In this document: in pieces, positions 3,451 through 48,755 of the stretch
Numbering within the stretch: the stretch's first letter is position 1
How the letters are laid out: each line of letters begins with the position of its first letter
Source of the DNA: a virus
Taxonomy: Duplodnaviria; Heunggongvirae; Uroviricota; Caudoviricetes
Length of the DNA stretch: 64,000 nucleotides
Direction: 5' to 3' (one strand)
Virus record (IMG/VR): IMGVR_UViG_3300042870_001966
Position numbers and translations under genes: made by a program
The notes under the pieces: generated by a model
Databases searched by the model: none
The model's input: the letters and a program-made list of their open reading frames with translations, nothing else
What the model was told of the DNA's origin: nothing

Positions 3451-4002
3451 ATGTTAAAATCATTTAGCCAATTCGTAACTGGATTATTTGAAAAGAAAGG
3501 AGACGCTCATAGTTATGGATGTGCAATGGTCTATTTCAATTTTCCAACAATGCCTGAACTGCATTCAAAAATAGATGAAGCAGATATCTACACAGAAGAG
3601 GGCGATCGTTCATACGGTCTTGAGGATGAACCTCATACAACTCTTTTATATGGACTTCATTCGGCAGATATTAATGACGCTAAGGTATTAGAGATATGTA
3701 AATCTAAACCAATCGGTCAACTGACTCTACATAATGCATCTCTATTTGAGAATGCTAAATACGATGTACTTAAGTTTGATGTAGAAAATCCAGTGTTGGC
3801 TGAGATTAATGCAGAACTTAGTAAGTTACCTCACACTACTGATTTCCCAGACTACCATCCACATGCAACAATCGGGTACCTAAAGCCTGGAACCGGCAAG
3901 AAATACGTTGACTTATTTAATGGTAATCGGCATGAAGTCGCTGCTCATAAAATAGTTTATTCAAAACCTGACGACAGTCGAATCGAAGAAGAATGGAATT
4001 AA
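3451..4002 (+). CDS. 2H phosphoesterase (LigT-like) with CTS-like N-terminus
   Basis: Two HxTx motifs (HTTL, HATI). N-terminus MLKSFSQFVTGLFE. Confidence 0.65.
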   Translation: MLKSFSQFVTGLFEKKGDAHSYGCAMVYFNFPTMPELHSKIDEADIYTEEGDRSYGLEDEPHTTLLYGLHSADINDAKVLEICKSKPIGQLTLHNASLFENAKYDVLKFDVENPVLAEINAELSKLPHTTDFPDYHPHATIGYLKPGTGKKYVDLFNGNRHEVAAHKIVYSKPDDSRIEEEWN

Positions 4003-17210: not shown

Positions 17211-17909
17211 ATGTTAATTAAAAATCAAACGCCATACCTTGGCAAAATTCAGTTGAAGTTCGAGAGATTTCCTCACTACACTGGCAAAACTAAATTAAAT
17301 AAGATCCACTTGGATCTGGGATTTACTAAGTTAGTAAGCCGAATCCGACCTGAAAGAGATTTGGAAGGTTGGGCTGTAAATCCTGAATGTATTAAACAAA
17401 TTGAAGCAACTACTGGGCTAAAGGTAGGAGTTCATAAGTTCGGACCAGACGATGAGTACTCATTACCCAATTCATGCATGAATCCAGACGGAGTTTACGT
17501 TGGATCAATTGAAGAAGGTTGGTGGTACTACAACAATGGCCTCAGAGCAACAAAGGGATCTCATCCTCATACTGCATGGAGTAAGAAGGCAAAGCAGTGG
17601 ATTGGTTATTCTCACCGTGCTTCTTGTGCATTCGGAAAAGGCGATAAACTATTTGATGCTAAATGGAAACCTGCTGAACAAGACCTTCCTCAATACGAAA
17701 AGTTCTACGGCAAGCACCTGGACTCGTATTATAAAGAGTGCGAAGAATGGGCAAAGAGTACCTCTGACCATAAAGCGTCAGAAGAAGAAATGACCCTTGC
17801 TGGTTGGGCAGTAGATCATATTCCTTTTAGACTACGTGGTGCTAAGACAATTCATTCGTATGAAGATGCTTACAAGGCAGCAGTTAACTTTGCAAAATAC
17901 GTATCGTAA
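17211..17909 (+). CDS. hypothetical protein
   Basis: ORF only. Confidence 0.5.
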   Translation: MLIKNQTPYLGKIQLKFERFPHYTGKTKLNKIHLDLGFTKLVSRIRPERDLEGWAVNPECIKQIEATTGLKVGVHKFGPDDEYSLPNSCMNPDGVYVGSIEEGWWYYNNGLRATKGSHPHTAWSKKAKQWIGYSHRASCAFGKGDKLFDAKWKPAEQDLPQYEKFYGKHLDSYYKECEEWAKSTSDHKASEEEMTLAGWAVDHIPFRLRGAKTIHSYEDAYKAAVNFAKYVS

Positions 17910-24483: not shown

Positions 24484-25149
24484 ATGATGAATGAATTTCA
24501 AAAGTACGCAATGAGCGAGCACGGGGTGTCCTCATTGAAATTAGATTATTACGGTAAACAAGTTGAGTCATCGATGACTCCTTATATTTTAGAGGAACGT
24601 GAAATGCGAGTTACTCAAATGGATATTTTCTCCAGATTAATGAGGGATCGTATTCTATGGGTCGCTGGACCAGTAAACGACTACATGTCAACTATTGTAC
24701 AGGCTCAGTTAATGTTCCTAGATTCTGTTGATAATTCAGATATCACAATGCACGTTGACTCTCCAGGAGGATCGGTTAAGTCTGGTCTATCAATGGTCGA
24801 CGTAATGGACTATATCAAAGCCGATATCCGAACCGTAAATACTGGCATGGCCGCATCGATGGGATCAGTGCTATTGGGCGCAGGAACAAAAGGCAAACGT
24901 AGTTCCCTAAGACACTCAACCACAATGCTGCACCAATCGTCTGGCGGTTTTAGCGGCAATATTCAGGATGCTGAAGTTGACTGGGCTGAATGGCAAAAAG
25001 TCAATCATGAACTTTTCGTTCTACTTGGTAAATACTGTGGTAAGAAAGCTGACCAAGTAAAGAAGGATGCAACCAGAGATTTCTGGTTAAATGCTGAAGA
25101 GGCAGTTAAGTACGGAATTATAGATCAAGTAATCACAAAGAAACCTTAA
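24484..25149 (+). CDS. clpP: ClpP-family serine protease
   Basis: SPGGSV...GMAASMG...HQSSGG catalytic triad context. Confidence 0.8.
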   Translation: MMNEFQKYAMSEHGVSSLKLDYYGKQVESSMTPYILEEREMRVTQMDIFSRLMRDRILWVAGPVNDYMSTIVQAQLMFLDSVDNSDITMHVDSPGGSVKSGLSMVDVMDYIKADIRTVNTGMAASMGSVLLGAGTKGKRSSLRHSTTMLHQSSGGFSGNIQDAEVDWAEWQKVNHELFVLLGKYCGKKADQVKKDATRDFWLNAEEAVKYGIIDQVITKKP

Positions 25150-25150
25150 T

Positions 25151-25567
25151 ATGAATAGAGTCTTAATTCTCCTACGTGGAGTTCCTGGTGCAGGTAAATC
25201 AACTGTTGCCAATTCAATATGGAATGAGTATGCCGTTTGCGAAGCTGACAAGTATTTTCACAACAAGGAAACTGGTGCATACGAATTTGATGTTACTAAA
25301 CTGAAGGATGCACATGAATGGTGTAGATCCCAGGTCGAGACCAGAATGAAAGACAGTCTGGTGAATCCACAATTTTACCCAGAGATTGTTGTCTCAAACA
25401 CATTCACCCAAGAGTGGGAGATGCAGGCATACTTCGATCTTGCAAAACAATACGATTACCGAGTAGTTTCTCTAATCGTTGAGAACCGTCATGGTGGAGA
25501 GAACGTGCATGGAGTACCAGCAGATAAGGTACAAGCAATGAGGGATCGTTTCCAAATTAAATTATGA
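25151..25567 (+). CDS. P-loop kinase, polynucleotide kinase (Pnk) kinase-domain-like
   Basis: Walker A LLRGVPGAGKST. VVSNTF resembles the T4 Pnk IISDTN motif. Confidence 0.5.
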   Translation: MNRVLILLRGVPGAGKSTVANSIWNEYAVCEADKYFHNKETGAYEFDVTKLKDAHEWCRSQVETRMKDSLVNPQFYPEIVVSNTFTQEWEMQAYFDLAKQYDYRVVSLIVENRHGGENVHGVPADKVQAMRDRFQIKL

Positions 25568-27900: not shown

Positions 27901-28449
27901 ATGACAACTGTAGATAAAATTAAGAGCCTAATTTCAGCAATTTCAAAAAGAGGAATTGGCCATACTGAGCTAATGAGGCAAGGAACTAATCACTACGATC
28001 GACCCTTTGCTATTGTTGCAAATACAATGGACTCCGCAAAGCGATTGGCCGGCGAGTCTGACCTCGCTACACCAGTTACGATAAGTAATATTGATCACTT
28101 AATAGGATCAGATTTGCCAGTTGCAATAGATCATTACCAAGTTCAGCAATTACTACAGTCAGCTCTAATTGAGATTTCCGATAGAGATTTTAAATTACAG
28201 AGAGCAATGACCATCCAGGAAAAGATGATGACACTTGTTGAATTGTATCAGAAGAGAGCTCATGAAATTGAGTCAATTAGTTCAGATCTATTGGCATGTA
28301 ATTGGTGGGACGTTAAGAAGATTATCTCTACTGAACGTAAGCTTCATAAAGCAATCTTAAAATACAATACTGAATACGATGGTATTGCCCAAACGTTTGA
28401 CACCTTAACTAAAATAGCAAAACATACACATGAGACTACTAACTCTTAA
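27901..28449 (+). CDS. hypothetical protein
   Basis: ORF only. Confidence 0.45.
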   Translation: MTTVDKIKSLISAISKRGIGHTELMRQGTNHYDRPFAIVANTMDSAKRLAGESDLATPVTISNIDHLIGSDLPVAIDHYQVQQLLQSALIEISDRDFKLQRAMTIQEKMMTLVELYQKRAHEIESISSDLLACNWWDVKKIISTERKLHKAILKYNTEYDGIAQTFDTLTKIAKHTHETTNS

Positions 28450-29359
28450 TCTAGCAAATCCGGAAAACGAAGGACGAGACCACTTTGAAAGAAGTGCATT
28501 CGTTGATTTCAAAGTTTCAAAGTTTGCTGACGGTCAACAGTCATTAACTCTAACTGGCGATATGCGTGGAAACTTAAGTTACCTACACGAAGCTGATGTC
28601 GTAATAAAATCTAGACTAAATAACTTCAAGGATCTTGAGTTAATTATCTGTGCAAATCAGGCTCTTCGCGAATGTGGAGTCGCGACAGTTTCCCTGTATG
28701 TTCCCTATTTCTTGGGAGCACGTAGTGACCGTAAATTCTCAGAAGGTTCTTCAAATTACCTAAAGACCGTTATTTGCCCAATCATTAATTCTCAGAAATT
28801 TGAATCTGTGCAGGTTCTGGATCCTCACTCTGATGTATTGGAAGCCTGTCTCAATAATTTCCAAAAAGTATCTAATTACTTACTCGTTAAGTACGCGCTT
28901 ACTGATATTGATAACACGAATCAGGCAAGAGAGAATATTGTTCTTGTTTCTCCAGACGCAGGTGCTCTAAGGAAAATTTACAAAGTCGCTGACTGGTTTG
29001 ACTTAAATGAGGTGGTGACTGCGGTAAAGCACAGAGATCCAAAAACCAGTAAAATCACTCACACCGATATTTCCTTAAAACCATTAGTGCATGAGTACGG
29101 CAAGAAATTCGTTATCGTGGACGATATTTGCGATAGTGCTGGAACTTCAATTGAATTAGCAAAAGCAATCAAGGAGAGAACTCAAGATTCGAAAATATAC
29201 TTGATAGCGACCCATGGAATTTTCAGTTCAGGATTATTTGATCTTTCTGCATACTTCGAAAAAGTTTACTGTACAAATTCAGTACAGGATATTAAAGCTG
29301 ACGAGTACTCTGACTACACAGTTAGCGCAGATTTCGTAAAACAATTTAACTTATTTTAG
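28430..29359 (+). CDS. prs: ribose-phosphate pyrophosphokinase (PRPP synthetase)-like
   Basis: VPYFLGARSDRK resembles PYfgYaRQDRK. DDICDSAGT PRPP-binding loop. Confidence 0.6.
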   Translation: MRLLTLNLANPENEGRDHFERSAFVDFKVSKFADGQQSLTLTGDMRGNLSYLHEADVVIKSRLNNFKDLELIICANQALRECGVATVSLYVPYFLGARSDRKFSEGSSNYLKTVICPIINSQKFESVQVLDPHSDVLEACLNNFQKVSNYLLVKYALTDIDNTNQARENIVLVSPDAGALRKIYKVADWFDLNEVVTAVKHRDPKTSKITHTDISLKPLVHEYGKKFVIVDDICDSAGTSIELAKAIKERTQDSKIYLIATHGIFSSGLFDLSAYFEKVYCTNSVQDIKADEYSDYTVSADFVKQFNLF

Positions 29360-29728: not shown

Positions 29729-30397
29729 ATGAAAATTACATTACAGCCTCATCAGCGAATATGGTTCACGTCAGATACTCACTACAAACACTCAAATATT
29801 TGTAGAGGAACGTCTAATTGGCCGGCCGAGAGTAAGACCAGAGATTTCGATACCCTGGATAAAATGAATGATACGATTGTTAACAATATCAATCACCTAG
29901 TCAGCGAAGACGATATTCTTTTCCACTTAGGAGACTGGTCGTTCGGAGGATTTGATAACATCCAGGAGTTCAGAGACAGGTTGCTCTGTAAGAACATTCA
30001 TTTGGTTCTAGGTAATCACGACCAGCACATCGAGAATGACAAGGGAGGAGTCAAGGCTCTATTTGCATCAGTGAATCATTACGTTAGACTGGAACTTACT
30101 GTTCCAAACGTGCCGAACGAAATAAATCCAGCGAAGACTATTAAGAAAACGTTTGTGCTATGTCATTACCCAATCGCAAGTTGGCACGATATGAACCGTG
30201 GAGTAATTCAATTACATGGTCACGTTCACTTAGGCCCACACAATAAATTACATGCAGGTAAAGCAATGGACGTTGGCATGGACGGCAACTTCATGGACCC
30301 ATATTCTCTTCAAGAAATCGCAAAGATTATGAGAGACCGTCCAGTTAAGTGTTTGGTTTTACCGAACGATCACCATGAAACAAACGAAGGAAGATGA
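29729..30397 (+). CDS. calcineurin-like metallophosphoesterase
   Basis: SDTHY...GDW...GNHD...HGHVH motifs. Confidence 0.7.
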   Translation: MKITLQPHQRIWFTSDTHYKHSNICRGTSNWPAESKTRDFDTLDKMNDTIVNNINHLVSEDDILFHLGDWSFGGFDNIQEFRDRLLCKNIHLVLGNHDQHIENDKGGVKALFASVNHYVRLELTVPNVPNEINPAKTIKKTFVLCHYPIASWHDMNRGVIQLHGHVHLGPHNKLHAGKAMDVGMDGNFMDPYSLQEIAKIMRDRPVKCLVLPNDHHETNEGR

Positions 30398-30831
30398 TAC
30401 AGAATACACACAATAAAATCGGCGAGGGTAATCGACTCCTTGCGCAATTCATGGGAGGCACAATTGTCTCTAGTGAAACCTACGAAATGCCACACGGCTC
30501 AAACGGCAAAGGCGTCTTTGAAAAATGGGGTGGACTCTCTGGAATTCCCAGTCACGATCAGGAATTGGCTGCACTTGGAATATTTAGATATGAAACCTCA
30601 TGGAGCTGGATTTTTCCAGTAATCGAAAAGATCGAGAGTCTTGGTTTCTGCGTCAGCATTCACCGTAGAGGAATTCAAATTATTAAGTACGACAAGGATC
30701 GAAGATTTGAAGCGACTGACCTAATTATCGATGAAGACTTCTTAGATGATTATTCTGGAGATGTTAAGCGAATTGCTGCATGGGACTGTTGCGTTTCTTT
30801 TGTTGACTGGTACACAAAGAGGAGCCAATAA
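30394..30831 (+). CDS. hypothetical protein
   Basis: ORF only. Confidence 0.45.
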   Translation: MIQNTHNKIGEGNRLLAQFMGGTIVSSETYEMPHGSNGKGVFEKWGGLSGIPSHDQELAALGIFRYETSWSWIFPVIEKIESLGFCVSIHRRGIQIIKYDKDRRFEATDLIIDEDFLDDYSGDVKRIAAWDCCVSFVDWYTKRSQ

Positions 30832-31217
30832 TGGAATTAACGGGACCCTCTAAACTAGTAGTCGCATCCAGTCCAATACACGGACTTGGAGTATTCGCAA
30901 CGCAATCTATTAGCCCAGGCGAGATTATTGAAGAATGTCATTTCATAACATTCGATGCGACATCAGATGATCCTATTTTTAATGATTATCGATTCATAGT
31001 CGGCCGTTCTGAGAAATTAGGCTGCGTAGAGTATGGCGTTCTTCTTGGATTCGGAGGAATCTACAATCACAGTGAAACTCCAAATATAAATTGGAGACAT
31101 GATACTGAAAAGAATTGTTTTACGTTCTTTGCACTAGTCGATATTAATCCAGGAGACGAATTGTGCTCGTATTACGGAGGGCCTGAATATTGGAAATCAA
31201 TTGGTATGGAAATTTAG
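30831..31217 (+). CDS. SET-domain protein (putative lysine methyltransferase)
   Basis: GLGVFA..GE.I, NHSETPN, GDELCSYYG SET motifs. Confidence 0.6.
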   Translation: MELTGPSKLVVASSPIHGLGVFATQSISPGEIIEECHFITFDATSDDPIFNDYRFIVGRSEKLGCVEYGVLLGFGGIYNHSETPNINWRHDTEKNCFTFFALVDINPGDELCSYYGGPEYWKSIGMEI

Positions 31218-31291: not shown

Positions 31292-32725
31292 ATGACAGAA
31301 ATCATCACATCATCACTTATGTACGGACTACCGGCCTTAATAGGGGTAATCGTATTTTTTTATGCACTATCTCTACGTCGAATCGTGCCAACTAACGTAG
31401 TCCACATCGTTCAACGAGGAGACAAAACTGTTTCCTATGGCGTAGGTAAAGGCTCTAACGTTTATTATGAGTGGCCGAAGTGGTTACCTAAAATCGGAGT
31501 TATGGTCAGATCATTGCCAGTATCTAACTTTGATATTGACTTAGCTAAATATTCAGCGTATGATAAGGACCGTGTCCCTTTCGTAGTTGACGTTAAGGCA
31601 TTCTTCCACATTGCTGATACAAATAAAGCTGCCGAGAAAGTAGAATCATTTGACGAGTTGAAAAAGCAGCTGGAAAATGTAGTTCAAGGAGCAGTTCGTT
31701 CTATTTTAGCAAAGTCTAAATTGGAGGAAATTATGGAAGAACGATCTATCTTTGGCGAAAAATTTACTGAAAGTGTTAAAGTTGATTTATCTAATTGGGG
31801 AGTTGAGCCTATTAAAAATATCGAGTTAATGGATGTTAGAGATACTGACGGTTCGAGCGTTATTCACCAGATTATGGCTAAGCGAATGTCTGCGATTGAT
31901 ATGGAATCCAGAACTGAAGTTGCTAAAAACACTAAATTGGCAGAGCAGGCGGAACTAACTGCTCAACAAGAAATTGATGTAACTAAAGCAGAAACTCAGA
32001 AAATTGCAGGAGAGGCGCAAGCTCAATCAATACAGGCAATCGGTATTGCCAAAGCAGAGGCTACAAAAAAGGCAGGTATTGCAGAACAAGAGTCAATATC
32101 AGATATCGCTCAAGCTGAACGAGCTACTGCTGAACAGCAAATGGAGGTCGTTAAAGTTAATGAGATTAAGCAGGCTGAAATTGATAAGGAAAAGGCAATT
32201 ATTGCAGCTGAGCAACAAAAACGCAAAACTGAAATTGACGCAGAGGCTAATAAATTTAGAATTGAGACTGAGGCTTCTGCTACACTTGAAGCACAGATCA
32301 AAAATGCAGAAGGTGTTAAAACTCTGGGCCAAGCAGAAGCAGATATTATTAAAGCAAAGGGTATATCGCAGGCTGAATCCAAGAAAGCAATGGAGCTTGC
32401 TGGAGTAACTGCCCAAACAACCCTAGCAAAAGAGATTGGCGAAAACAAATCTTACCAAGAATACTTGATCAAAATTAGAGAAGTTGAAGTAACTCAAGTA
32501 GTCGGAGTTGCACAATACGAATCGATGGCAAAAGCAATGGCTGGAGCTGACTTGAAACTATTGGTAAATAGTGGAGACGTACACTCAGGAATTGGCAAGT
32601 TAAGCGACCTATTCACAGCTAAAGGAGGTTCACAGATTAACGGGCTTCTTGAATCATTGAAACAGACACCTGAAGGTAAAGGCTTACTGGCTATGCTTAA
32701 CAAGCTTACACCAGGCGCAGAATAA
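31292..32725 (+). CDS. SPFH/band-7 (flotillin-like) membrane protein with long coiled coil
   Basis: N-terminal TM helix, SPFH core, QAE/KAE-rich heptads. Confidence 0.65.
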   Translation: MTEIITSSLMYGLPALIGVIVFFYALSLRRIVPTNVVHIVQRGDKTVSYGVGKGSNVYYEWPKWLPKIGVMVRSLPVSNFDIDLAKYSAYDKDRVPFVVDVKAFFHIADTNKAAEKVESFDELKKQLENVVQGAVRSILAKSKLEEIMEERSIFGEKFTESVKVDLSNWGVEPIKNIELMDVRDTDGSSVIHQIMAKRMSAIDMESRTEVAKNTKLAEQAELTAQQEIDVTKAETQKIAGEAQAQSIQAIGIAKAEATKKAGIAEQESISDIAQAERATAEQQMEVVKVNEIKQAEIDKEKAIIAAEQQKRKTEIDAEANKFRIETEASATLEAQIKNAEGVKTLGQAEADIIKAKGISQAESKKAMELAGVTAQTTLAKEIGENKSYQEYLIKIREVEVTQVVGVAQYESMAKAMAGADLKLLVNSGDVHSGIGKLSDLFTAKGGSQINGLLESLKQTPEGKGLLAMLNKLTPGAE

Positions 32726-32741
32726 TTTTTAATAAATTTAA

Positions 32742-32778
32742 GACAAAAAGTCTCTAGATTTGTCTAGAGACTTTTTTA
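32742..32778 (+). terminator. rho-independent terminator
   Basis: GTCTCTAGAtttgTCTAGAGAC followed by TTTTTT. Confidence 0.65.
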
Positions 32779-32806
32779 TTTTGGTATAATAGTAAAAAGA
32801 AATAAC

Positions 32807-33544
32807 ATGACAGCACCATTTGAATTTTACGAAGTAGGCGGAAAGGTAAGAGACGAGATCTTGGGACTTCAGTCCAAAGACGTTGATTACGTAGCCGTGC
32901 CGAAAGCAACTCTGCTTGAGGAATTTCCTGAGGCGGCTGATATGTTTGACTTGCTAGTTGACTACTTAACTCGTGAAAAATTCCAGATATTCCTGATCAC
33001 CAAAGAATGTTACACAATCAGAGCAAAATTTCCAGACGGACATAAGTACCAAGGAGTTGCTGATTTTGTAATGTCTAGAAAAGAGACTGGATACGTGCCG
33101 TTTACCAGAACTCCGATCATTAAGCCTGGAACCCTATTCGACGATTTACAGAGAAGAGACTTTACTCTTAATGCCCTGGCAAGAGAAGCGGACGGCTCGA
33201 TCATTGACTACTTTGATGGGCTGACTCACTTGAAGCTTGGGCTATTAGTAACGCCATTACCTTGCGAGGAAACGTTTCACGATGATCCTTTGAGAATCTT
33301 GAGAGCTATTAGATTTTCAATCACTAAAGGATTTACTATCCCTGAGGAAATGTCTCAAGTAATAAAGCACTACGATTACGAAGTTAAGATGTGTGTAGTA
33401 TCAGCTGAGAGAATCAGGGAAGAGCTCTTTAAGTGTTTCAAACATGACACTCATGCAACGATACTTAAGTTATCAGAGTACCCTTTCCTTATGGAATACA
33501 TTTTTAGAACACAAATCTGGTTAAAACCAACAATGGAAGAATAA
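32807..33544 (+). CDS. cca: CCA-adding tRNA nucleotidyltransferase (head/neck domains)
   Basis: GGKVRDEILG, DVDY, RRDFTLNA motifs. Confidence 0.75.
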   Translation: MTAPFEFYEVGGKVRDEILGLQSKDVDYVAVPKATLLEEFPEAADMFDLLVDYLTREKFQIFLITKECYTIRAKFPDGHKYQGVADFVMSRKETGYVPFTRTPIIKPGTLFDDLQRRDFTLNALAREADGSIIDYFDGLTHLKLGLLVTPLPCEETFHDDPLRILRAIRFSITKGFTIPEEMSQVIKHYDYEVKMCVVSAERIREELFKCFKHDTHATILKLSEYPFLMEYIFRTQIWLKPTMEE

Positions 33545-34098
33545 TGGAAGCAACAATAAATGGAAGAATAATGGAAGCAAAAATAAACTGGGTTCTAGAC
33601 CAACATAGAGACACGAATCACATGTACGATAAGTACTTGCCTTATGAATTTCATTTACGTATGGTCGTTGAAGTTGCAAAGAAATTTCAATCTTTAATTA
33701 CGTATGAGAAAGATTTTGAGCATGTACTACTTGGAGCATGGGGCCATGATCTTATTGAAGACACCAGAGTTTCATACAATGATGTTAAGCAGGCGCTTGG
33801 AGAAATGGCAGCAGATATTGTCTATGCGTGCTCAAACGAGAAAGGCAAGAGTCGTAATGATCGGGCTAACTACCGATACTACGATGGAATCAGAACAACG
33901 CCGTATGCGATATTCGTTAAGTTATGCGACCGAATTGCAAACGTGCAGTACTCAAAAATGTCTGGCAGCAGAATGTTCGAGATGTACAGAAAAGAAAATC
34001 CCGAATTCATGCAGCAATTAGGCTGGACGGCTGAAGAAAAATATCTTCATGAGTATGCCAATATGTTTGTATACTTAAGTAAATTATTCGAAGACTGA
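33544..34098 (+). CDS. HD-domain phosphohydrolase (stand-alone)
   Basis: H..GHDLIEDT...D motifs. Adjacent to the CCA enzyme, as in bacterial fused CCA enzymes. Confidence 0.65.
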   Translation: MEATINGRIMEAKINWVLDQHRDTNHMYDKYLPYEFHLRMVVEVAKKFQSLITYEKDFEHVLLGAWGHDLIEDTRVSYNDVKQALGEMAADIVYACSNEKGKSRNDRANYRYYDGIRTTPYAIFVKLCDRIANVQYSKMSGSRMFEMYRKENPEFMQQLGWTAEEKYLHEYANMFVYLSKLFED

Positions 34099-34117
34099 AA
34101 ATAAAAAAATTAATATA

Positions 34118-35320
34118 ATGGAAAATCAAAACAGCGTATGTTACATTGGAAAAGTAACAGAAATCAAGGCAATCGAAGGAGCTGACAATATTGAGTTAGC
34201 GATCATCGGTGGATGGAATTGTATTACTAAAAAAGGACTACACAAGGCGGACGAATTTGTTATCATTGCAACAACTGATGCAGTTATTCCGGAAGAGTTA
34301 TCCGAAAAATTGGGAGTAACCGGTTACCTGCGTAAGGGCAATCGAGTTAGAACAGTTAAGTTGAGAGGAGTTTACAGTGAGTGTCTAATCATTCCGCTTA
34401 ATGTGCTTGAAGGTTCAGAAGAAATGAAGATCGGAGTTAGTAAACAGCCTTGGGGCGATCAATTACAGTTGGGCCCTTATGACGATGCACTCGTTATTGA
34501 AGAAGGAGTTGACGTTAGTGAGATGCTTGGAATTTTCAAGTACGAACCGCCAGTTAGACAGGTCCAACTTGCTTCAGGTAAAAAGGTTCGTTATCAAGAC
34601 AATCCAAACTTTCATGTCTACTACAAGTTTCCTAACTTGAAAAATGTTAGTGGAATGTTTACTGAAGAGGATATTGTGCAAATCACGCGTAAGATCCACG
34701 GTACGAATGCACGATACGGTATAGTTAAGAAGAATCGCTTGTCCTTCATGGATAGGATTAAAAAATTCTTTGGATTCGCCGGAGAGCTCTTTGAGTACGA
34801 GTACGTTTATGGATCTCATAATGTCGAGAAGGGTTCTGATTCTCAAGGGTTCTATTCAACTGATGTCTGGAGAACAATTGCCGAGAAGTACGATATCAAG
34901 AACAGGTTGCTTACCTTAGCAAAAACTAAAAATAGGATTGGTGAACTTGGAGCTGGTATTGTAATTTACGGAGAAATTTACGGTGCAGGTATTCAAAAGA
35001 ATTACGAGTACGGTCTGACTGATATTGAATTCGTTGGATTCGATGCCACAGTAAACGGCAAATACGAGTCCACTATTTACACTGAATTCCTTTTCAAAGA
35101 AGCGCTAGAGTTACCTCACGTTGGAGTCCTATACACAGGACCGTGGTCACAAGAGACACAAGACCAGTTCGTCTTTGGTAATATGATCAAAGGAACTAAG
35201 GTGCCGCATGAAGGCATTGTTATTAAGCACATAAGCGGTGAGCGTAATCGAGTAGCAAAGGTAATTAATCCAGACTATTTGATTTACGGAGAAAAGCACG
35301 ATATTGGAGACTCACATTAA
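34118..35320 (+). CDS. ATP-dependent RNA ligase (Rnl2-like motifs) fused to N-terminal tRNA-binding OB (Myf/Trbp111-like) domain
   Basis: N-terminal GKV.EI..IEGADNIELA..GG tRNA_bind pattern. Ligase motifs KIHGTN (I), EGIVIK (IV), AKVIN (V). Confidence 0.65.
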   Translation: MENQNSVCYIGKVTEIKAIEGADNIELAIIGGWNCITKKGLHKADEFVIIATTDAVIPEELSEKLGVTGYLRKGNRVRTVKLRGVYSECLIIPLNVLEGSEEMKIGVSKQPWGDQLQLGPYDDALVIEEGVDVSEMLGIFKYEPPVRQVQLASGKKVRYQDNPNFHVYYKFPNLKNVSGMFTEEDIVQITRKIHGTNARYGIVKKNRLSFMDRIKKFFGFAGELFEYEYVYGSHNVEKGSDSQGFYSTDVWRTIAEKYDIKNRLLTLAKTKNRIGELGAGIVIYGEIYGAGIQKNYEYGLTDIEFVGFDATVNGKYESTIYTEFLFKEALELPHVGVLYTGPWSQETQDQFVFGNMIKGTKVPHEGIVIKHISGERNRVAKVINPDYLIYGEKHDIGDSH

Positions 35321-35334
35321 TAAAACAAATACAA

Positions 35335-35808
35335 ATGGAAGAAGAAAAATTACCGATCAGAATCTATTTAGATGACGTTCGAACACCAATTGAACAGGAC
35401 TGGATAGTTGTTAGATCATACCAGGAGTTCAAGGACAAGGTGATGGAAATTGGATTAAAGAACATTCACATGATCTCATTGGATCACGACTTGGGTGACT
35501 CAGCTATGTCAGAGTACTTCACGAATGTAAGTCCTAACTATAAGCTAGACTACACGAACATTACTGAAAAAACTGGAATGGATTGCACTAAGTGGTTGGT
35601 GAATCAGTTCTACGACGAGAATCCAAAGAGAATTGAGATGAGTCGTTTCGATAAGCGTAATGTGCCGATTCGGTTTCCAGCAGTCTACGTACACTCAGCG
35701 AATCCAATTGGATCAGCGAACATGATGGGTTACATTAATAACTTCTTCATGAATGAGGGAGAACCTCAAAACTGCGTGAGAGTTCAGATACCTCACACGG
35801 TAATGTAA
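35335..35808 (+). CDS. hypothetical protein
   Basis: ORF in the RNA-repair block. Confidence 0.45.
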   Translation: MEEEKLPIRIYLDDVRTPIEQDWIVVRSYQEFKDKVMEIGLKNIHMISLDHDLGDSAMSEYFTNVSPNYKLDYTNITEKTGMDCTKWLVNQFYDENPKRIEMSRFDKRNVPIRFPAVYVHSANPIGSANMMGYINNFFMNEGEPQNCVRVQIPHTVM

Positions 35809-35829
35809 TTATTAAAAATAGATTAACTA

Positions 35830-36372
35830 ATGAAAGTTGTACAAGAATTTCCTAACGGGCTTATATCAGTTTATCCATCCGTGTTTGGCGATGAAAGAGG
35901 ATTTTTTCTAGAATCGTTTAATCAGCTGAAATATTCTGAATTTCTTAATGAGCATTCATTTGTTCAGGATAATTTATCTAGATCCAAAAAAGGAGTCCTT
36001 CGTGGATTGCATTTTCAAGCTCCACCGTTTGATCAAGGAAAATTGGTTCAGGTAATTACAGGAAGCGTGTTGGATGTTGCGGTAGATATTCGTCGAGACT
36101 CTCCAAGCTACGGTAAATCCTTTCAAGTTGTATTAAATACGACTGATCGCAATCAACTTTGGATTCCACCAGGCTTTGCGCATGGCTTCGTTAGCCTAGA
36201 AGACGACACTATTTTTTCCTATAAATGCACAAACGGTTATTCAAAAGAACATGAAGGCTGTATATTATGGAATGATGCGGACTTAGCGATTGATTGGGAA
36301 ATTGAAAATCCTATCATTTCGGATAAAGATCAATTGGGAACCCCGTTTAAAGAGTTAATCAGCCCATTCTAA
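35830..36372 (+). CDS. rmlC: dTDP-4-dehydrorhamnose 3,5-epimerase (RmlC, cupin)
   Basis: LRGLHFQ and ERGFF motifs. Confidence 0.8.
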   Translation: MKVVQEFPNGLISVYPSVFGDERGFFLESFNQLKYSEFLNEHSFVQDNLSRSKKGVLRGLHFQAPPFDQGKLVQVITGSVLDVAVDIRRDSPSYGKSFQVVLNTTDRNQLWIPPGFAHGFVSLEDDTIFSYKCTNGYSKEHEGCILWNDADLAIDWEIENPIISDKDQLGTPFKELISPF

Positions 36373-36424
36373 CGAGAATTGCTGAAAATAAAAAATGACC
36401 TCAGGAAATTATTAATAGTTATTG

Positions 36425-36435
36425 GGTATAATAAC
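36425..36435 (+). promoter_or_regulatory. GGTATAATAAC motif upstream of tRNA-Leu
   Basis: Same motif. Confidence 0.45.
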
Positions 36436-36464
36436 TTTATAACAAAACAAACGTTCTTTAAGTT

Positions 36465-36545
36465 GCCCTCTTGGCGGAATTGGTAGACGCGCTAGACTTA
36501 GGATCTAGTCTTAGGGTGAGAGTTCGAGTCTCTCAGAGGGTACCA
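36465..36545 (+). tRNA. tRNA-Leu(TAG)
   Basis: Class-II D-arm TGGCGGAATTGGTAGACGC. Loop CTTAGGA. Short (9 nt) variable region. CCA encoded. Confidence 0.6.
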
Positions 36546-36697
36546 AACACATATCACAAATAAAAATGTGAGTTACTTTGAAATAGCCAATTATAAGCCA
36601 ACATAAAGCCGTTGGGTACAGAAGGAGTAATTAACCGGAGTATAGGCAACAATTGTGACACTGTAACAAATACCCATTTGAGTGGTATGTTTTAAAT

Positions 36698-36818
36698 AGT
36701 CAGGTGGCGGAATTGGTAGACGCTATGTGGTGCGGAACTCGCTTCGTTCACCACTCCCTTAGCGGGGAAAACAAAGGTAAGAGATGTGACCATGCAGGTT
36801 CGAATCCTGTCCTGACTA
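36698..36818 (+). ncRNA. 121-nt tRNA-like RNA (Leu-like acceptor/D/T arms with about 45-nt extra internal sequence)
   Basis: Acceptor AGTCAGG/CCTGACT. D-arm identical to the tRNA-Leu at 36465. T-arm GCAGG-TTCGAAT-CCTGT. Internal hairpins GTGGT..ACCAC and GAAC-TCGCTTC-GTTC. Confidence 0.4.
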
Positions 36819-36984
36819 CGATTGTTAACACGCTTGCTTCGTGTTGAAATTGTCAGATAACGTGCAACGATAGTTTAAAGACTGTAGAAAAAGAAACACT
36901 GACTGGAAGGATTCTTATGGACGCATAAGAAGTAAAAGTCCACAACTAAACCTACTTACAATTGGCAAGGTAAATTGAATTAAG

Positions 36985-37012
36985 GCGATCGATCTAACGG
37001 TCGCCTTTTTTA
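36985..37012 (+). terminator. rho-independent terminator
   Basis: GGCGAtcgatctaacggTCGCC followed by TTTTTT. Confidence 0.55.
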
Positions 37013-42506: not shown

Positions 42507-42590
42507 GGAAGAGTAATTCAGCTGGCGCTGGACCTAGTCTTGAAAACTAGTGGTACCTTCGGGTATGGGGATCGATACCTCACTCTTCCG
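42507..42590 (+). tRNA. tRNA-Ser(TGA)-like, type II, non-canonical T-loop ATCGATA
   Basis: 8-bp acceptor. Anticodon arm CTAGT-CTTGAAA-ACTAG. Variable-arm hairpin with TTCG loop. Confidence 0.5.
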
Positions 42591-47942: not shown

Positions 47943-48183
47943 AACCGTCCAGGACATTACTCACGGAATAGTTGCAGTAAGACGAGACGATAAAAAGAAT
48001 GAAATGTACGTTCTGCATTTTTGTGGGTTCTTTGAAGAGCCTAGCGCTGCAGACTACGACCACCTACGAAAAGAATTAGAAGAGGATCCTGAATTTGGAT
48101 TAACTGATCAGGAATTTGAATTAATCGCAGCGACTCCTCAAATGCTGGAGTACGTCAAAAATGATGCAAATCAAGGTAACTAA
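47926..48183 (+). CDS. hypothetical protein
   Basis: ORF only. Confidence 0.35.
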   Translation: MSSEDKTVQDITHGIVAVRRDDKKNEMYVLHFCGFFEEPSAADYDHLRKELEEDPEFGLTDQEFELIAATPQMLEYVKNDANQGN

Positions 48184-48755
48184 TGAAGGTAATTTTTTTA
48201 GACCATGATGGAGTTATTTGCCTAGCTACTGAATGGGGAAGTCGATTTAAGAAGACTAAAAGGTCTAAGACTGCGATGCAAATTAATACTAAAGACAATC
48301 CAGTTGAGTTTAGATTTGACAACTTTAATCAGAAAGCAGTTTCAATACTTAACGATATTATAAAGCAGACTGATGCTGAAATTGTAGTAAGTTCAGATTG
48401 GACACGTTGGGCGACCGTTGAAGAAATGGGCGAGTATTATGAATCAAAGGGCATCTGTAAAAAGCCGATCGCATTTACCCCAGACCTAAAGGACTGTACT
48501 GTGCATGGAAGTATTTTTATCTGGTCACCGGATTGGGATCTTGAACAAGTAAGATCTATTGAAATTAAGCAGTACTTACACGATCATCCTGAAATAACTC
48601 ATTGGGTTGCAATTGACGACTTAAACATGGGTAAAAGCGGCGAGAGTTGGAAAGATGTGTGGGCCTTAGATAATTTCGTACTTACACCAAAGCGAATGGA
48701 AGGCATTAAGCAGTCTGGAATAAAGGATAAAATCTTAAAATTTTTAAAGGATTAA
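48183..48755 (+). CDS. HAD-family phosphatase, Pnk 3'-phosphatase-domain-like
   Basis: VIFLDHDGVI (DxDG nucleophile motif) and WVAIDD motif resemble T4 Pnk VIFDVDGTL / LAIDD. Confidence 0.5.
   Translation: MKVIFLDHDGVICLATEWGSRFKKTKRSKTAMQINTKDNPVEFRFDNFNQKAVSILNDIIKQTDAEIVVSSDWTRWATVEEMGEYYESKGICKKPIAFTPDLKDCTVHGSIFIWSPDWDLEQVRSIEIKQYLHDHPEITHWVAIDDLNMGKSGESWKDVWALDNFVLTPKRMEGIKQSGIKDKILKFLKD

Follow-up and report, generated by a model that had tools for sequence, protein, structure and literature searches.

A probable RNA-repair and tRNA-maintenance gene set around an Rnl5-family RNA ligase in a large phage

The window, by which we mean the whole 64,000-nucleotide stretch of DNA that was analysed, comes from a large phage of Bacteroidota-type hosts, and the region around its RNA ligase gene is probably (we put this at roughly 60%) where a set of phage genes for RNA repair and tRNA maintenance, assembled from known enzyme families, has its core. 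Each component belongs to a described family, making this an ordinary new example with no new architecture; phage RNA-repair kits of like composition have been published before (PMC7824862, PMC9503650). What is modestly new is that a truncated 245-aa enzyme of CCA type recurrently adjoins a small alarmone hydrolase (SAH), suggesting a rescue of tRNA 3' ends from toxins that pyrophosphorylate CCA, and, as a side point, that a family of tRNA-Leu-framed structured RNAs lies next to these genes. An earlier note on this DNA had proposed that the phage carries genes to heal and seal RNA ends and to maintain tRNA 3' ends, and profile, structure and context searches bear out the families concerned. 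The open reading frames it named are present where it placed them, with the quoted motifs readable in their translations, while a cREC protein and a calcineurin-type phosphoesterase (MPE1) had been overlooked.

The genes form a packed unit (32807-36545) in the order CCA-type enzyme, SAH, Rnl5 ligase, cREC, RmlC-like gene and tRNA-Leu, followed by a tRNA-like element (Table 1). The gaps between its five open reading frames are, in order, -1, 19, 14 (from the ligase stop to the cREC start) and 21 nt, the first being a TAATG stop/start overlap. Terminator-like hairpins lie at both ends; as such sites are not above chance in the region (5 observed versus 4.1 expected), the boundary at the upstream hairpin is suggestive only. 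The kinase, MPE1, HAD and 2H genes are dispersed in the window, 2.4-30 kb from the ligase unit, but related phages have them beside the ligase.

Table 1. Features of the window considered in the analysis
Feature	Coordinates	Strand	Details and basis
2H phosphoesterase (LigT/ThpR-like cyclic phosphodiesterase, weakly Acb1-like)	3451..4002	+	Pfam, PHROG, motifs
Stand-alone P-loop kinase, polynucleotide-5'-kinase-like	25151..25567	+	138 aa; Pfam, PHROG, PDB profile
Calcineurin-like metallophosphoesterase (MPE1), candidate 2',3'-cyclic or 3'-phosphate end-healing	29729..30397	+	Pfam, PHROG, motifs
Terminator-like hairpin	32745..32776	+	14 bp + T-run; after upstream Band-7 gene, before CCA gene
Truncated class II tRNA nucleotidyltransferase, CCA-adding type	32807..33544	+	245 aa; Pfam, PHROG, PDB, motifs
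Small alarmone hydrolase (SAH; RelA/SpoT-homologue, Mesh1-like)	33544..34098	+	184 aa; PDB phmmer, family profile, Foldseek
Rnl5-family ATP-dependent RNA ligase (DraRnl/NgrRnl, TIGR02306)	34118..35320	+	400 aa; Pfam, NCBIfam, PDB profile, Foldseek
cREC (cyclic-phosphate-processing receiver-like) protein	35335..35808	+	Pfam cREC_REC, PHROG
tRNA-Leu(UAG), CCA encoded	36465..36545	+	ARAGORN; Rfam 57.8 bits
Terminator-like hairpin	36982..37007	+	10 bp, 6 GC, + T-run; 3' end of packed unit
Stand-alone HAD phosphatase, 'Swiss-army-knife' RNA-repair family	48183..48755	+	190 aa; Pfam, motifs

The family assignments, the conservation of catalytic motifs and the gene linkage are documented below; as to which substrates are used, in what order the steps run and which host weapon is countered, we infer the following scheme. 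Metal-independent host nucleases would cut RNA, most plausibly tRNA, leaving 2',3'-cyclic-phosphate and 5'-OH ends. The cyclic phosphate might then be opened by the 2H, cREC or metallophosphoesterase protein, the phosphate taken off by the HAD or metallophosphoesterase, and the 5'-OH phosphorylated by the kinase, whereupon Rnl5 would join 3'-OH to 5'-PO4 via lysyl-AMP on K192, its OB domain aiding adenylylation as in NgrRnl. Separately, the CCA-type enzyme would complete or rebuild tRNA 3' ends, and the SAH might strip off the 3'-pyrophosphate that toxSAS/CapRel-type defences attach to CCA ends, or else hydrolyse (p)ppGpp/(p)ppApp.

Among the predicted end-healing enzymes, the kinase matches Pfam AAA_33 (4e-11), PHROG 2071 (8e-38) and PHROG 505 'polynucleotide kinase' (3.6e-6), with the bacterial Pnkp kinase domain as best NCBIfam match (2.8e-4). 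The best full-domain match of its family profile in the PDB is T4 Pnk (1ltq/1ly1, 7e-4 to 1e-3, residues 1-104), whereas adenylate kinases match at the P-loop only; to judge from sequence, it is closest to polynucleotide kinases, which agrees with the T4 Pnk-like assignment of the earlier note. Homologues of this stand-alone kinase occur in 626 cultured-phage records, an annotated RNA ligase lying under or beside the kinase match in several of the matches listed. The HAD protein belongs to an RNA-repair family (HAD_SAK_2 6e-22, 78.9 bits against a cut-off of 27.5) and carries the DxDG motif FLDHDGV as well as AIDD; it is no detached T4 Pnk domain, its family being one that 'tends to occur as a standalone domain' (PMC7824862). 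A genetically split Pnk, which had been regarded as unusual, is thus the common phage state, the kinase being stand-alone in hundreds of cultured phages. MPE1 is recognized by Pfam Metallophos (4.5e-7), PHROG 547 (1.4e-42) and the motifs DTH, GDW, GNHD and HGHVH. The 2H phosphoesterase mentioned in the earlier note was located, with two HxT motifs (HTTL and HATI), PHROG 755 (2.3e-10), TIGR02258 (1.3e-3) and two Pfam matches under cut-off (2_5_RNA_ligase2 2.5e-4 and Acb1 2.3e-4; 21.5 versus 27 bits). The cREC protein is identified by cREC_REC (2.3e-20, 73.5 bits against 27) and PHROG 1479 (1.5e-24); published work links cRec to RNA ligases within operons (PMC7824862), and the domain is experimentally uncharacterised (PMC9503650).

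Linkage was counted in 80 ligase-centred viral loci, together with 80 SAH-centred and 80 CCA-centred ones. Around the ligase, the kinase is present in 59/80 loci and within 1.5 kb in 49/80, MPE1 in 36/80 (mostly directly upstream of the kinase), cREC in 21/80, a 2H homologue 2-5 kb downstream in 17/80, the SAK-HAD in 10/80, the CCA-type enzyme in 7/80 and the SAH in 3/80. The unrelated neighbours of the window, namely Band-7, SET, RmlC-like and g52, are found in 0/80 of these loci, and ClpP in 1/80. The pattern persists after dereplication at 90% identity to 56 ligase clusters, of which 38 have the kinase, 27 MPE1 and 15 cREC. The HAD gene lies within 6 kb of the ligase, SAH and CCA genes in 10/80, 11/80 and 22/80 loci, respectively. 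Two loci, L028 and L082, show the window order in a compact 8 kb form, with ClpP, kinase, MPE1, SAH, HAD, ligase and cREC in succession (other genes separating kinase and MPE1), the HAD lying between SAH and ligase. SAH and CCA genes are adjacent, in either order, in 18/80 SAH-centred and 13/80 CCA-centred loci; a partner within 6 kb is absent in 61/80 and 64/80, respectively.

The HD protein had been taken in the earlier note for the domain normally fused to CCA enzymes; instead, PDB, NCBIfam and Foldseek searches all point to RSH hydrolases, and it is an RSH-family SAH of the Mesh1/SpoT type. Its Pfam HD match (1.7e-3, 19.1 bits) falls under the 22-bit cut-off, while 13 of 25 close homologues match HD_4. 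In the PDB, phmmer recovers Mesh1 (3nqw, 6.5e-7) and the Pseudomonas aeruginosa SAH (6yvc, 1.8e-6); all 14 matches of the family profile are RSH hydrolases, and NCBIfam gives spoT_relA and SpoT only. An AF2 model (pLDDT 89) retrieves PaSAH (TM 0.70-0.75), along with MESH1, the Bacteroides caccae (p)ppApp hydrolase, RelH and Rel/SpoT. The family-invariant residues are H37, H68-D69, E72-D73, D129 and N133, and the true start is likely Met10 at 33571. Like PaSpo (Salmonella phage SSU5), PbcSpo (PVP-SE1), ATfaRel and MESH1, it is a single-domain RSH hydrolase of ~180 aa with the same catalytic residues, and that group neutralises toxSAS, including toxins that pyrophosphorylate tRNA CCA ends; it is, however, only ~25% identical to the nearest solved SAH. 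SAHs restore toxSAS-pyrophosphorylated tRNA (bioRxiv 10.1101/2021.04.30.441581), the phage SAHs from PVP-SE1 and SSU5 neutralise every toxSAS tested (PMC7229694), and CapRel is present in Bacteroidetes (PMC9712102). Unlike the known stand-alone SAHs, that of the window has a CCA-type nucleotidyltransferase and an RNA ligase as translationally juxtaposed partners, an arrangement of which we found no description in the literature.

These similarities also bring up a somewhat unlikely alternative, namely that the genes clear small molecules, the link to the ligase reflecting only a shared counter-defence island. The SAH would then hydrolyse (p)ppGpp/(p)ppApp, blunting either the stringent response of the host or abortive infection by (p)ppApp toxins, while nucleotide immune signals or derivatives of ADP-ribose would be broken down by the cREC, 2H, HAD and metallophosphoesterase proteins. 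The (p)ppApp hydrolase and the promiscuous P. aeruginosa SAH among the nearest structures, the match of the 2H protein to the anti-CBASS Acb1 besides LigT, a Tad6 anti-Thoeris homologue within the window, the prediction of cREC and 2H as possible processors of ADPr>P or cADPR (PMC9503650) and the interpretation of the Pakpunavirus SAH as an alarmone modulator (PMC12846349) are all consistent with it. Yet it leaves no role for the kinase and ligase, the tightest-linked pair of all; RNA-repair contexts are what define HAD_SAK_2 and cREC (Pfam names; PMC7824862), and the SAH specifically adjoins a tRNA 3'-end enzyme in either gene order.

That enzyme has the CCA-adding nucleotidyltransferase head domain claimed for it (PolyA_pol 6e-15, 56 bits against a cut-off of 23) and a neck (PolyA_pol_RNAbd 1.5e-4). 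It matches PHROG 24229 'tRNA nucleotidyltransferase' (3.5e-53, a profile of 245 positions) and contains the motifs GGKVRD..DVD, RRDFTLNA, DGLTHL, DDPLRILRAIRF and ERIREEL. Its PDB matches (CCA-adding and A-adding enzymes and poly(A) polymerases) cover approximately the first 250 residues of chains of 390-580 aa, and the best NCBIfam matches are CCA tRNA nucleotidyltransferases, all far under the equivalog cut-offs. As the tRNA-binding body and tail of known enzymes are absent, candidate products are CCA, CC, A or poly(A). ARAGORN predicts 26 tRNAs in the window, of which 10 encode CCA; the other 16 encode C74 only, followed by a non-C base, in line with the earlier report of many tRNAs devoid of CCA. 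A homologous tRNA is kept 3' of cREC in L028, L082 and five further loci (L081, L161, L117, L121 and L084). The tRNA-Leu-framed structured RNAs adjoin ligase, kinase and SAH genes in relatives.

It could accordingly be supposed, and we regard this as unlikely, that the set merely matures the RNAs of the phage itself with no host nuclease or toxin involved, the CCA-type enzyme finishing the 16 CCA-less tRNAs and the tRNA-like RNAs, and the ligase and end-processing enzymes serving biogenesis. The incomplete 3' ends, the tRNA-Leu and tRNA-like element within the packed unit, and the position of such elements in relatives would fit. Nevertheless, a kinase, phosphatase, cyclic phosphodiesterase and ligase are unneeded in ordinary bacterial tRNA maturation, and of the intron models tried on the tRNA-like elements none is consistent. 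Moreover, hosts whose tRNA genes lack CCA possess their own CCA-adding enzyme.

The ligase, which the earlier note had typed as Rnl2, is by sequence an RNA ligase of the Rnl5 family, and neither a DNA ligase nor a capping enzyme. It matches Pfam RNA_ligase (3e-15) and, along positions 6-339 of 341, TIGR02306 (4.4e-27; 94.8 bits, under the curated cut-off of 151), the Rnl2 profile TIGR02307 giving a local match only (1e-5). In the PDB its profile finds NgrRnl (7e-22) far ahead of T4 Rnl2 (1e-3), and Foldseek with an AF2 model (pLDDT 73) finds NgrRnl along the full length (2e-19), the remaining RNA ligases scoring 1e-6 or weaker. An N-terminal OB domain (aa 10-95) precedes the nucleotidyltransferase, a C-terminal module being absent, and K192-x-H194-G195, E286, E365-G-x-x-x-K370, K381, D54 and K141 are invariant. 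The predicted tRNA-binding-like OB domain is present, but spans aa 10-94 (PHA02142 OB-fold, 2.6e-12) and not ~180 aa; its similarity to tRNA-binding OB folds is seen with Pfam tRNA_bind (E=0.05) and, by Foldseek, 3bu2 (2.7e-3) and Trbp111 3ers (1.9e-2). The fusion, thought unusual, is the published hallmark of the DraRnl clade, phage members included, since 2007 (PMC1807946), and ligase relatives are present in 577 cultured-phage records. Like DraRnl (D. radiodurans DRB0094) and NgrRnl (Naegleria gruberi; PDB 5cot), the window ligase combines N-terminal OB and C-terminal nucleotidyltransferase domains and stops ~30 aa past motif IV. It shares with them the DraRnl-type motif I KxHG, conserved residues of motifs III, IV and V, and the Asp and Lys of the N-domain which in NgrRnl make the contacts to ATP and metal. 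It differs in its low identity (~19% to NgrRnl), its length (400 against 340 aa, with a low-confidence insert at aa 100-125) and its phage setting with healing enzymes.

DraRnl and NgrRnl seal duplex nicks with RNA as the 3'-OH strand, and the DraRnl knockout is radiation-sensitive (PMC5397189, PMC4408790). That the characterised Rnl5 ligases act on such nicks and not on broken anticodon loops speaks against the preferred reading, and their physiological role is called 'uncharted' (PMC5397189); PrrC/RloC-type anticodon nucleases, named in the earlier note as the target, were a conjecture. That Rnl5 acts on nicked RNA:DNA or RNA-containing duplexes while the phage replicates or during repair, a role suggested in Deinococcus, and not on tRNA, is nonetheless quite improbable: its constant phage partners are a 5'-kinase and 3'-end phosphoesterases healing RNase-type ends, and in the window tRNA 3'-end enzymes and a tRNA gene lie on either side of it. 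The novel architecture envisaged in the earlier note (a Trbp111-Rnl2 fusion, a split-off CCA HD domain and a T4-type Pnk in two genes) is scarcely credible despite the resemblance of the N-domain to tRNA-binding OB folds, as the two ligase domains are collinear with NgrRnl over the full length and published (PMC1807946), the HD protein belongs to the RSH hydrolases, and the kinase and HAD families stand alone in hundreds of phages (PMC7824862).

RNA repair with tRNA maintenance, the preferred reading, has several counterparts among known systems. In T4, tRNA repair is done by Rnl1, and the repair of tRNA-Lys by Pnk and Rnl1 against PrrC follows the same logic, a tRNA-rich phage combining a 5'-kinase with a 3'-end phosphatase and an ATP-dependent ligase; in the window, however, kinase and phosphatase are separate genes of other families (AAA_33 stand-alone; SAK-HAD and calcineurin-type) and the ligase is Rnl5. 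As in bacterial Pnkp/Hen1, a kinase, calcineurin-type phosphoesterase and ligase would act together, and relatives have contiguous genes in the order MPE1-kinase-ligase, but these are three separate proteins in place of one polypeptide, with a ligase of another family; no Hen1 methyltransferase was found in the window. In Pakpunavirus (Pseudomonas phages JG004, Adele and PaP1), a few kb near a tRNA cluster contain an SAH, an annotated RNA ligase, a homologous stand-alone kinase, an MPE1 homologue and a PRPP-synthetase homologue (PMC12846349). In JG004, an independent lineage, the SAH, MPE1 homologue, ligase and kinase lie inside 3.8 kb, the MPE1 homologue being between the SAH and the ligase-kinase pair; unlike in the window, Pakpunavirus shows no adjacent CCA-type enzyme, and the kinase-adjacent ligase of JG004 gives no match to the window Rnl5 at E<=0.01. 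The published phage RNA-repair kits (Burroughs & Aravind 2016, cited in Iyer et al. 2021, PMC7824862; PMC9503650), as far as their available text goes, speak of Rnl1 and Rnl2 ligases and do not include an SAH, and the window differs from them in its Rnl5 ligase and the 245-aa head-neck form of its CCA-type enzyme. The parts list is otherwise the same: an ATP-dependent RNA ligase, polynucleotide kinase, stand-alone SAK-type HAD, 2H, ligase-linked cRec, calcineurin-like phosphoesterase, CCA-adding enzyme and many phage tRNAs.

The window derives from an uncultured 271-kb phage that is kin to phages of Bacteroidota. Its GC content is 38.7%, and its gene content is that of a large phage, with a T4-type portal, a family B polymerase, ClpP, a ClpB-like ATPase and a protein with a T9SS sorting domain. 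Proteins identical to those of the window are already present in public collections, on contigs of up to 271 kb. There they carry machine-given names, namely 'RNA ligase (TIGR02306 family)', which is the JGI label of the identical ligase protein, 'tRNA nucleotidyltransferase/poly(A) polymerase', '(p)ppGpp synthase/HD superfamily hydrolase', 'predicted kinase' and 'calcineurin-like phosphoesterase'. Among cultured phages, a near-identity DNA search with positions 32000-37000 returned a tRNA as its sole match. The cohesin-domain protein with its T9SS C-terminal sorting signal and the lysin with PG_binding and chitinase-class-I domains point towards a host in the Bacteroidota. Of the cultured phages seen, the nearest, reached via the small alarmone hydrolase (SAH) described below, is the 235-kb Tenacibaculum phage pT24 (locus L237 of the related viral loci), which is a further clue to the host; nearly all genes around its SAH are annotated as 'hypothetical', and of the query proteins the SAH alone matched there. 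All five ORFs from which the earlier note had assembled a tRNA repair kit are present, at the positions listed in the table.

Features of the window discussed in the text, with positions, strand and length where reported
Feature	Position	Strand	Length
2H phosphoesterase	3451-4002		
T9SS cohesin-domain protein; PG_binding/chitinase-class-I lysin	10960-12882, 12901-13725	-	
Tad6 homologue	17211-17909	+	
ClpP	24484-25149	+	
Pnk-type kinase	25151-25567		138 aa
PRPP synthetase-like protein	28430-29359	+	
MPE1, calcineurin-type phosphoesterase	29729-30397		
SET-domain protein	30831-31217	+	
Band-7/SPFH protein	31292-32725	+	477 aa
Terminator-like hairpin, upstream	32745-32776		
CCA-type nucleotidyltransferase	32807-33544	+	245 aa
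Tandem duplication at CCA/SAH overlap	33532-33587		27-bp unit
SAH	33544-34098	+	184 aa
RNA ligase	34118-35320	+	400 aa
cREC	35335-35808	+	
RmlC-like epimerase	35830-36372	+	
tRNA-Leu-framed element	36698-36818	+	121 nt
Terminator-like hairpin, downstream	36982-37007		
tRNA-Sec-like element	42507-42589	+	
HAD phosphatase (HAD_SAK_2)	48183-48755		
ClpB/ClpA-type double AAA+ ATPase	50749-52731	+	
Family B DNA polymerase ORF	60520-62145	-	541 aa

The ligase combines an N-terminal OB-fold (PHA02142, residues 10-94, 2.6e-12) with a C-terminal nucleotidyltransferase domain (RNA_ligase, PF09414, residues 186-383, 3e-15), and ends 30 residues past the EGIVIK motif without a further C-terminal domain. 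When a profile of 24 homologues was compared with the PDB, the RNA ligase of Naegleria gruberi (NgrRnl) was recovered as a full-length collinear match at 7e-22, as against 1e-3 for T4 Rnl2. The AlphaFold model (pLDDT 73) likewise retrieved NgrRnl over its full length in Foldseek (2e-19), with other RNA ligases at 1e-6 or weaker. Among NCBIfam models, TIGR02306 (the DRB0094 family) is covered from end to end at 4.4e-27, with a score of 94.8 bits that lies under the equivalog cut-off of 151.15, and the protein is a divergent member of that family. Motif I is of the type seen in the Deinococcus ligase DraRnl (T-x-K192-I-H194-G195, or KxHG). Alignments of 24-30 homologues show no variation in the K192-I-H194-G195 tract, E286, E365/K370, K381 and, in the N-domain, D54 and K141. 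D54 and K141 align with D53 and K121 of NgrRnl, whose E227 and E312 are also aligned; the N-domain residues of NgrRnl touch the gamma-phosphate of ATP as well as the metal, and are required for lysine adenylylation (PMC7261155). Taken together, the NgrRnl and TIGR02306 matches, the KxHG motif and the N-domain residues identify the ligase as an Rnl5 and not, as the earlier note had proposed, an Rnl2: the Rnl2 model TIGR02307 (1e-5) and T4 Rnl2 align solely through a local stretch of 45-70 residues around motif III, and the C-terminal helical domain specific to Rnl2 is absent from the window ligase. From its family, the enzyme is predicted to seal nicks with 3'-OH(RNA)/5'-PO4 ends through a ligase-AMP intermediate.

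The suggestion that the ligase carries a Trbp111-like tRNA-binding domain stands at the level of the fold, but not as membership of PF01588. Foldseek returned the tRNA-binding protein 3bu2 (2.7e-3), PheRS-beta chains and Trbp111 itself (3ers, 1.9e-2), whereas PF01588, although it ranked second in Pfam, reached only E=0.052 (14.1 bits; cut-off, 27), on residues that match the PHA02142 OB at 2.8e-13. This kinship of the DraRnl OB domain with tRNA-binding domains was described by Raymond and Shuman in 2007, a phage homologue included (PMC1807946). The OB-ligase fusion, which had been called unusual, was therefore published long ago, and relatives of the ligase occur in 577 cultured-phage records and among more than 5,600 matching database proteins.

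The assignment of the CCA-type ORF to the nucleotidyltransferase head domain proved solid, with 56 bits to Pfam PolyA_pol (cut-off 23), a match to PHROG 24229 at 3.5e-53 and readable motifs A-E, of which motif D starts with D rather than E (DDPLR). The protein stops after the neck: its PDB alignments cover approximately the first 250 residues of enzymes of 390-580 residues, and the body and tail domains, which hold the tRNA elbow, are absent from the ORF. The entire PHROG 24229 has the same 245-position form and is thus a phage family of minimal enzymes. The ORF falls short of all NCBIfam equivalog cut-offs by a wide margin, and its sequence would fit a class II CCA-type enzyme without separating CCA-, CC- or A-adding from poly(A) activity.

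The adjacent ORF had been interpreted as the HD domain normally fused to bacterial CCA enzymes, here encoded separately. It is instead a stand-alone SAH. Of the two ORFs, only the CCA-type one is matched at E<=0.01 by the NCBIfam model NF008137 ('multifunctional CCA addition/repair protein'); the HD ORF had spoT_relA and SpoT as its sole NCBIfam matches. Among solved structures the HD protein is nearest to Drosophila Mesh1 (6.5e-7) and the SAH of Pseudomonas aeruginosa, PaSAH (1.8e-6), followed by Rel/SpoT hydrolase domains, and all 14 PDB matches of the family profile are RSH hydrolases. The structural model (pLDDT 89) superimposes on PaSAH with a TM score of 0.70-0.75, and essentially all Foldseek matches below an E-value of about 0.6 are RSH hydrolases, including the (p)ppApp hydrolase of Bacteroides caccae. 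The H..HD..ED..D..N set (H37, H68, D69, E72, D73, D129 and N133) is invariant in the family. The generic Pfam HD model scores 19.1 bits, under its cut-off of 22; HD_4 (PF13328) does not match the window protein, and is matched by 13 of 25 close homologues, at best with 4.8e-6. The enzyme would be expected to hydrolyse a 3'-pyrophosphate, be it on (p)ppGpp, (p)ppApp or tRNA. No CCA-SAH fusion of the 'Rosetta stone' kind was found among the best 120 SAH homologues, all of which are stand-alone proteins of 160-213 residues. The overlap of the CCA stop and the SAH start (ATGGAAGAATAATGGAAGCAA) has itself been duplicated in tandem (2.1 copies of a 27-bp unit, 96% match), adding nine residues at the N-terminus, and the homologues begin at Met10 of the window protein.

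The kinase is recognized by AAA_33 (4e-11) and PHROG 2071 (8e-38), and among NCBIfam models the bacterial Pnkp kinase domain fits it best. A single-sequence search of the PDB gave nothing significant; with a profile of 31 sequences the best full-domain match is T4 Pnk, at a weak 7e-4 to 1e-3. Adenylate kinases match this profile at the P-loop only, so that the objection that the protein might be a thymidylate or adenylate kinase does not apply. From sequence alone a Pnk-type assignment would be weak, but the gene context strongly supports it. The idea of a Pnk split into two genes did not survive: the kinase is a stand-alone protein, and the phosphatase, 23 kb away, belongs to HAD_SAK_2 (PF18143, 6e-22, 78.9 bits against 27.5; nucleophile motif D7-H-D9-G) and is no domain split off from T4 Pnk. 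HAD_SAK proteins have been described as usually stand-alone in jumbo phages (PMC7824862). Neither of the architectures regarded as unusual holds.

A further gene, missed by the earlier note, encodes a cREC protein 14 nt past the ligase (PF20274, 2.3e-20, 73.5 bits against 27; motifs YLDDVR and SLDHDLG). An operonic linkage of cREC with RNA ligases has been published (PMC7824862), and in the literature the activity of cREC is a prediction only (PMC9503650). The 2H protein retains both HxT motifs and matches PHROG 755 at 2.3e-10; its Pfam score of 21.5 bits is sub-threshold (27), and Acb1 matches equally weakly. MPE1 has a complete set of metallophosphoesterase motifs.

The association of these genes was examined in 80 viral loci around each of the ligase, SAH and CCA-type genes, onto which the window proteins were mapped by tblastn with flanks of at most 6 kb. 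The ligase is accompanied by the kinase in 59 of its 80 loci (in 49 at no more than 1.5 kb, as a rule directly upstream), by MPE1 in 36, cREC in 21, a second metallophosphoesterase in 20, 2H in 17, SAK-HAD in 10, the CCA-type enzyme in seven and SAH in three. Among the control proteins, Band-7, SET, g52 and the RmlC-like protein were found in none of these loci and ClpP in one. The 80 SAH-centred loci contain the CCA-type gene in 19 cases (18 adjacent, in both gene orders), cREC in 18, the ligase in 12 and HAD in 11, and those centred on the CCA-type gene contain HAD in 22, SAH in 16 (13 adjacent), cREC in 14 and the ligase in 10. The pattern is kept after dereplication at 90% identity. In two related loci (L028 and L082) the order seen in the window is squeezed into 8 kb (ClpP-kinase-..-MPE1-SAH-HAD-ligase-cREC-g60), and two others (L162 and L164) have MPE1-CCA-ligase-cREC without SAH. 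The toolkit, called distributed in the earlier note, is thus the expanded form of a compact, shuffling island. In Pseudomonas phage JG004, of an unrelated lineage, a stretch of a few kb holds SAH, an annotated RNA ligase and homologues of MPE1, the kinase and PRPP synthetase, and a study of Pakpunavirus reports the same kinase-ligase pair with a kinase lacking a phosphatase domain (PMC12846349).

Within the window, the five ORFs from the CCA-type to the RmlC-like gene are separated by -1, 19, 14 and 21 nt, and this unit lies between the two terminator-like hairpins that are the longest in the region, although the hairpin count is not above chance. The last ORF, between cREC and a tRNA-Leu, encodes a dTDP-4-dehydrorhamnose 3,5-epimerase (RmlC-type cupin, 2.5e-64) and, given its absence from all 80 ligase loci, looks like a lineage-specific insertion. 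Just upstream of the unit lie two genes, one for a SET-domain protein and one for a Band-7/SPFH protein whose coiled-coil tail is long and rich in Ala, Glu and Lys, both unlinked to the repair genes in relatives. ClpP precedes the kinase directly, as it also does in L028 and L081-L083, and the window has a ClpB/ClpA-type ATPase in addition. The PRPP synthetase (ribose-phosphate pyrophosphokinase)-like protein is encoded between the kinase and MPE1; in JG004 a gene of this kind stands beside the kinase and next to nicotinamide phosphoribosyltransferase, and a link to NAD+ reconstitution is possible.

The analysis shows to which families the proteins belong, that their catalytic residues are conserved and that their genes are linked; the established chemistry of these enzyme families allows us to infer a heal-and-seal route. 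A 2',3'-cyclic phosphate would be opened by 2H, cREC or the metallophosphoesterase, the phosphate taken off by HAD or the metallophosphoesterase, the 5'-OH phosphorylated by the kinase, and the break sealed by Rnl5. What Rnl5 acts on is the least secure element of this route. Characterised Rnl5 enzymes seal duplex nicks and their physiological role has been termed 'uncharted' (PMC5397189), so that a kit directed against PrrC, RloC or colicin-type nucleases, as had been envisaged, is unproven. The same property speaks for a rival and less likely view, that Rnl5 seals replication-associated nicks; against it speaks the usual company of a 5'-kinase. In a second alternative the enzymes would solely mature phage RNAs. 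ARAGORN finds 26 tRNA genes in the window, of which 10 encode CCA and 16 encode C74 alone followed by A, T or G, so that the earlier note was right about the ends CTA, CAA and CAC. C74 is encoded uniformly in all 26 genes, including the 16 without CCA. A third alternative is that the enzymes clear small-molecule signals.

Parallel to the heal-and-seal route, a 3'-end route may be envisaged in which the CCA-type enzyme builds or rebuilds CCA, needed by those 16 phage tRNAs, and SAH strips a 3'-pyrophosphate or hydrolyses alarmones. The reassignment of the HD protein bears on function here, since some SAHs reverse the pyrophosphorylation of tRNA CCA ends by toxSAS enzymes. MESH1 and ATfaRel restore tRNA with a CCA end pyrophosphorylated by toxSAS (bioRxiv 10.1101/2021.04.30.441581), all toxSAS enzymes tested were neutralised by the stand-alone SAHs that phages PVP-SE1 and SSU5 encode (PMC7229694), and PaSpo achieves this neutralisation 'by removing the tRNA modification' (PMC11245113). 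The toxSAS of the CapRel type act against phages and have Bacteroidetes among their carriers (PMC9712102). That the CCA-type enzyme and SAH form a rescue module dedicated to tRNA 3'-ends attacked by CapRel/toxSAS is a tentative proposal, which we regard as possible and somewhat doubtful. In more general terms, the SAH assignment and the recurrent, translationally coupled adjacency to the CCA-type gene suggest that phages may pair two restorations of the tRNA 3'-end, namely de-pyrophosphorylation and re-synthesis, an idea testable against CapRel-type defences.

The unit that holds the CCA-type gene also contains a tRNA-like gene that ARAGORN does not call, and that Rfam detects as tRNA only with permissive filters (34.5 bits against a gathering score of 29). 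It keeps an intact acceptor stem, a D-arm of the tRNA-Leu type, a T-arm, A73 and C74, and 51 nt replace the anticodon arm. This frame recurs nearly identically around completely different interiors, the total length being mostly 100-129 nt. In the first 236 loci there are 22 such copies, up to four per locus, often abutting ligase, kinase or SAH genes (L001 4804, 5064; L031 5860; L048 1545/1819/2303/2685; L089 90/6776/7047/8767; L137 378/3431/3752; L152 1887). Further copies are found from L239 onward. The frame occurs in at least 119 viral contig stretches, with at least 145 distinct interiors in at least 104 sequence clusters among the matches listed. Most members are missed by ARAGORN, several often occur per phage, and the 84-nt members alone form a canonical tRNA-Leu(UAG). 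The family likewise encodes C74 (...A-C-(A/T)AAA). An intron fails as a consistent model, since in the intron mode of ARAGORN the window element has a poor anticodon stem, and anticodons and intron sites disagree across the 22 members. An antisense or repeat origin was also rejected, the interior of the window element having no other significant match in the window. In two interior clusters, compensatory double changes at two pairs in each preserve the helices, in small samples. We consider it improbable that the enzymes and these RNAs make up one functional system, in which the RNAs would either be matured, recycled or cut and rejoined by the CCA-type enzyme, SAH and the heal-and-seal enzymes, or serve as decoys for tRNA-directed defences. 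The RNAs may merit separate study.

Elsewhere in the window, an element between tRNA-Cys and tRNA-His, again without an ARAGORN call, scores 47.9 against the Rfam tRNA-Sec gathering score of 47. A counter-defence gene in the early-gene region encodes a homologue of Tad6, the inhibitor of type I Thoeris (PF25188, 9e-21). The polymerase ORF covers only positions 142-450 of the 453-position family B profile, and the exonuclease part is not found in the adjoining ORFs, suggesting that the polymerase may be split or interrupted.

With regard to known systems, PADLOC gave no informative match, and the Mom-type tRNA-dependent DNA modification (PMC13219725) was considered and found not relevant. In bacterial Pnkp/Hen1 systems the kinase, phosphoesterase and ligase form a single polypeptide, whereas in the window they are separate genes, and the whole-window Pfam scan found no Hen1-type methyltransferase. 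Two earlier accounts describe phage kits with an ATP-dependent ligase, kinase, SAK-HAD, 2H, cRec, calcineurin-like phosphoesterase and CCA-adding enzyme (PMC7824862, PMC9503650), and the present kit is one more example of this catalogued class. Knowledge of the Rnl5 architecture goes back to 2007, and that of phage SAHs to 2020. In the literature as far as it was accessible, we found neither a description of the recurrent adjacency of SAH and the minimal CCA-type enzyme nor Rnl5 so named as the ligase of a phage kit; both are refinements and not a new kind of system. In a large clade of phages Rnl5 is the preferred ligase, partnered by a 5'-kinase (59/80 loci) and 3'-end phosphoesterases, and this partnership provides a concrete setting for asking what Rnl5 repairs.
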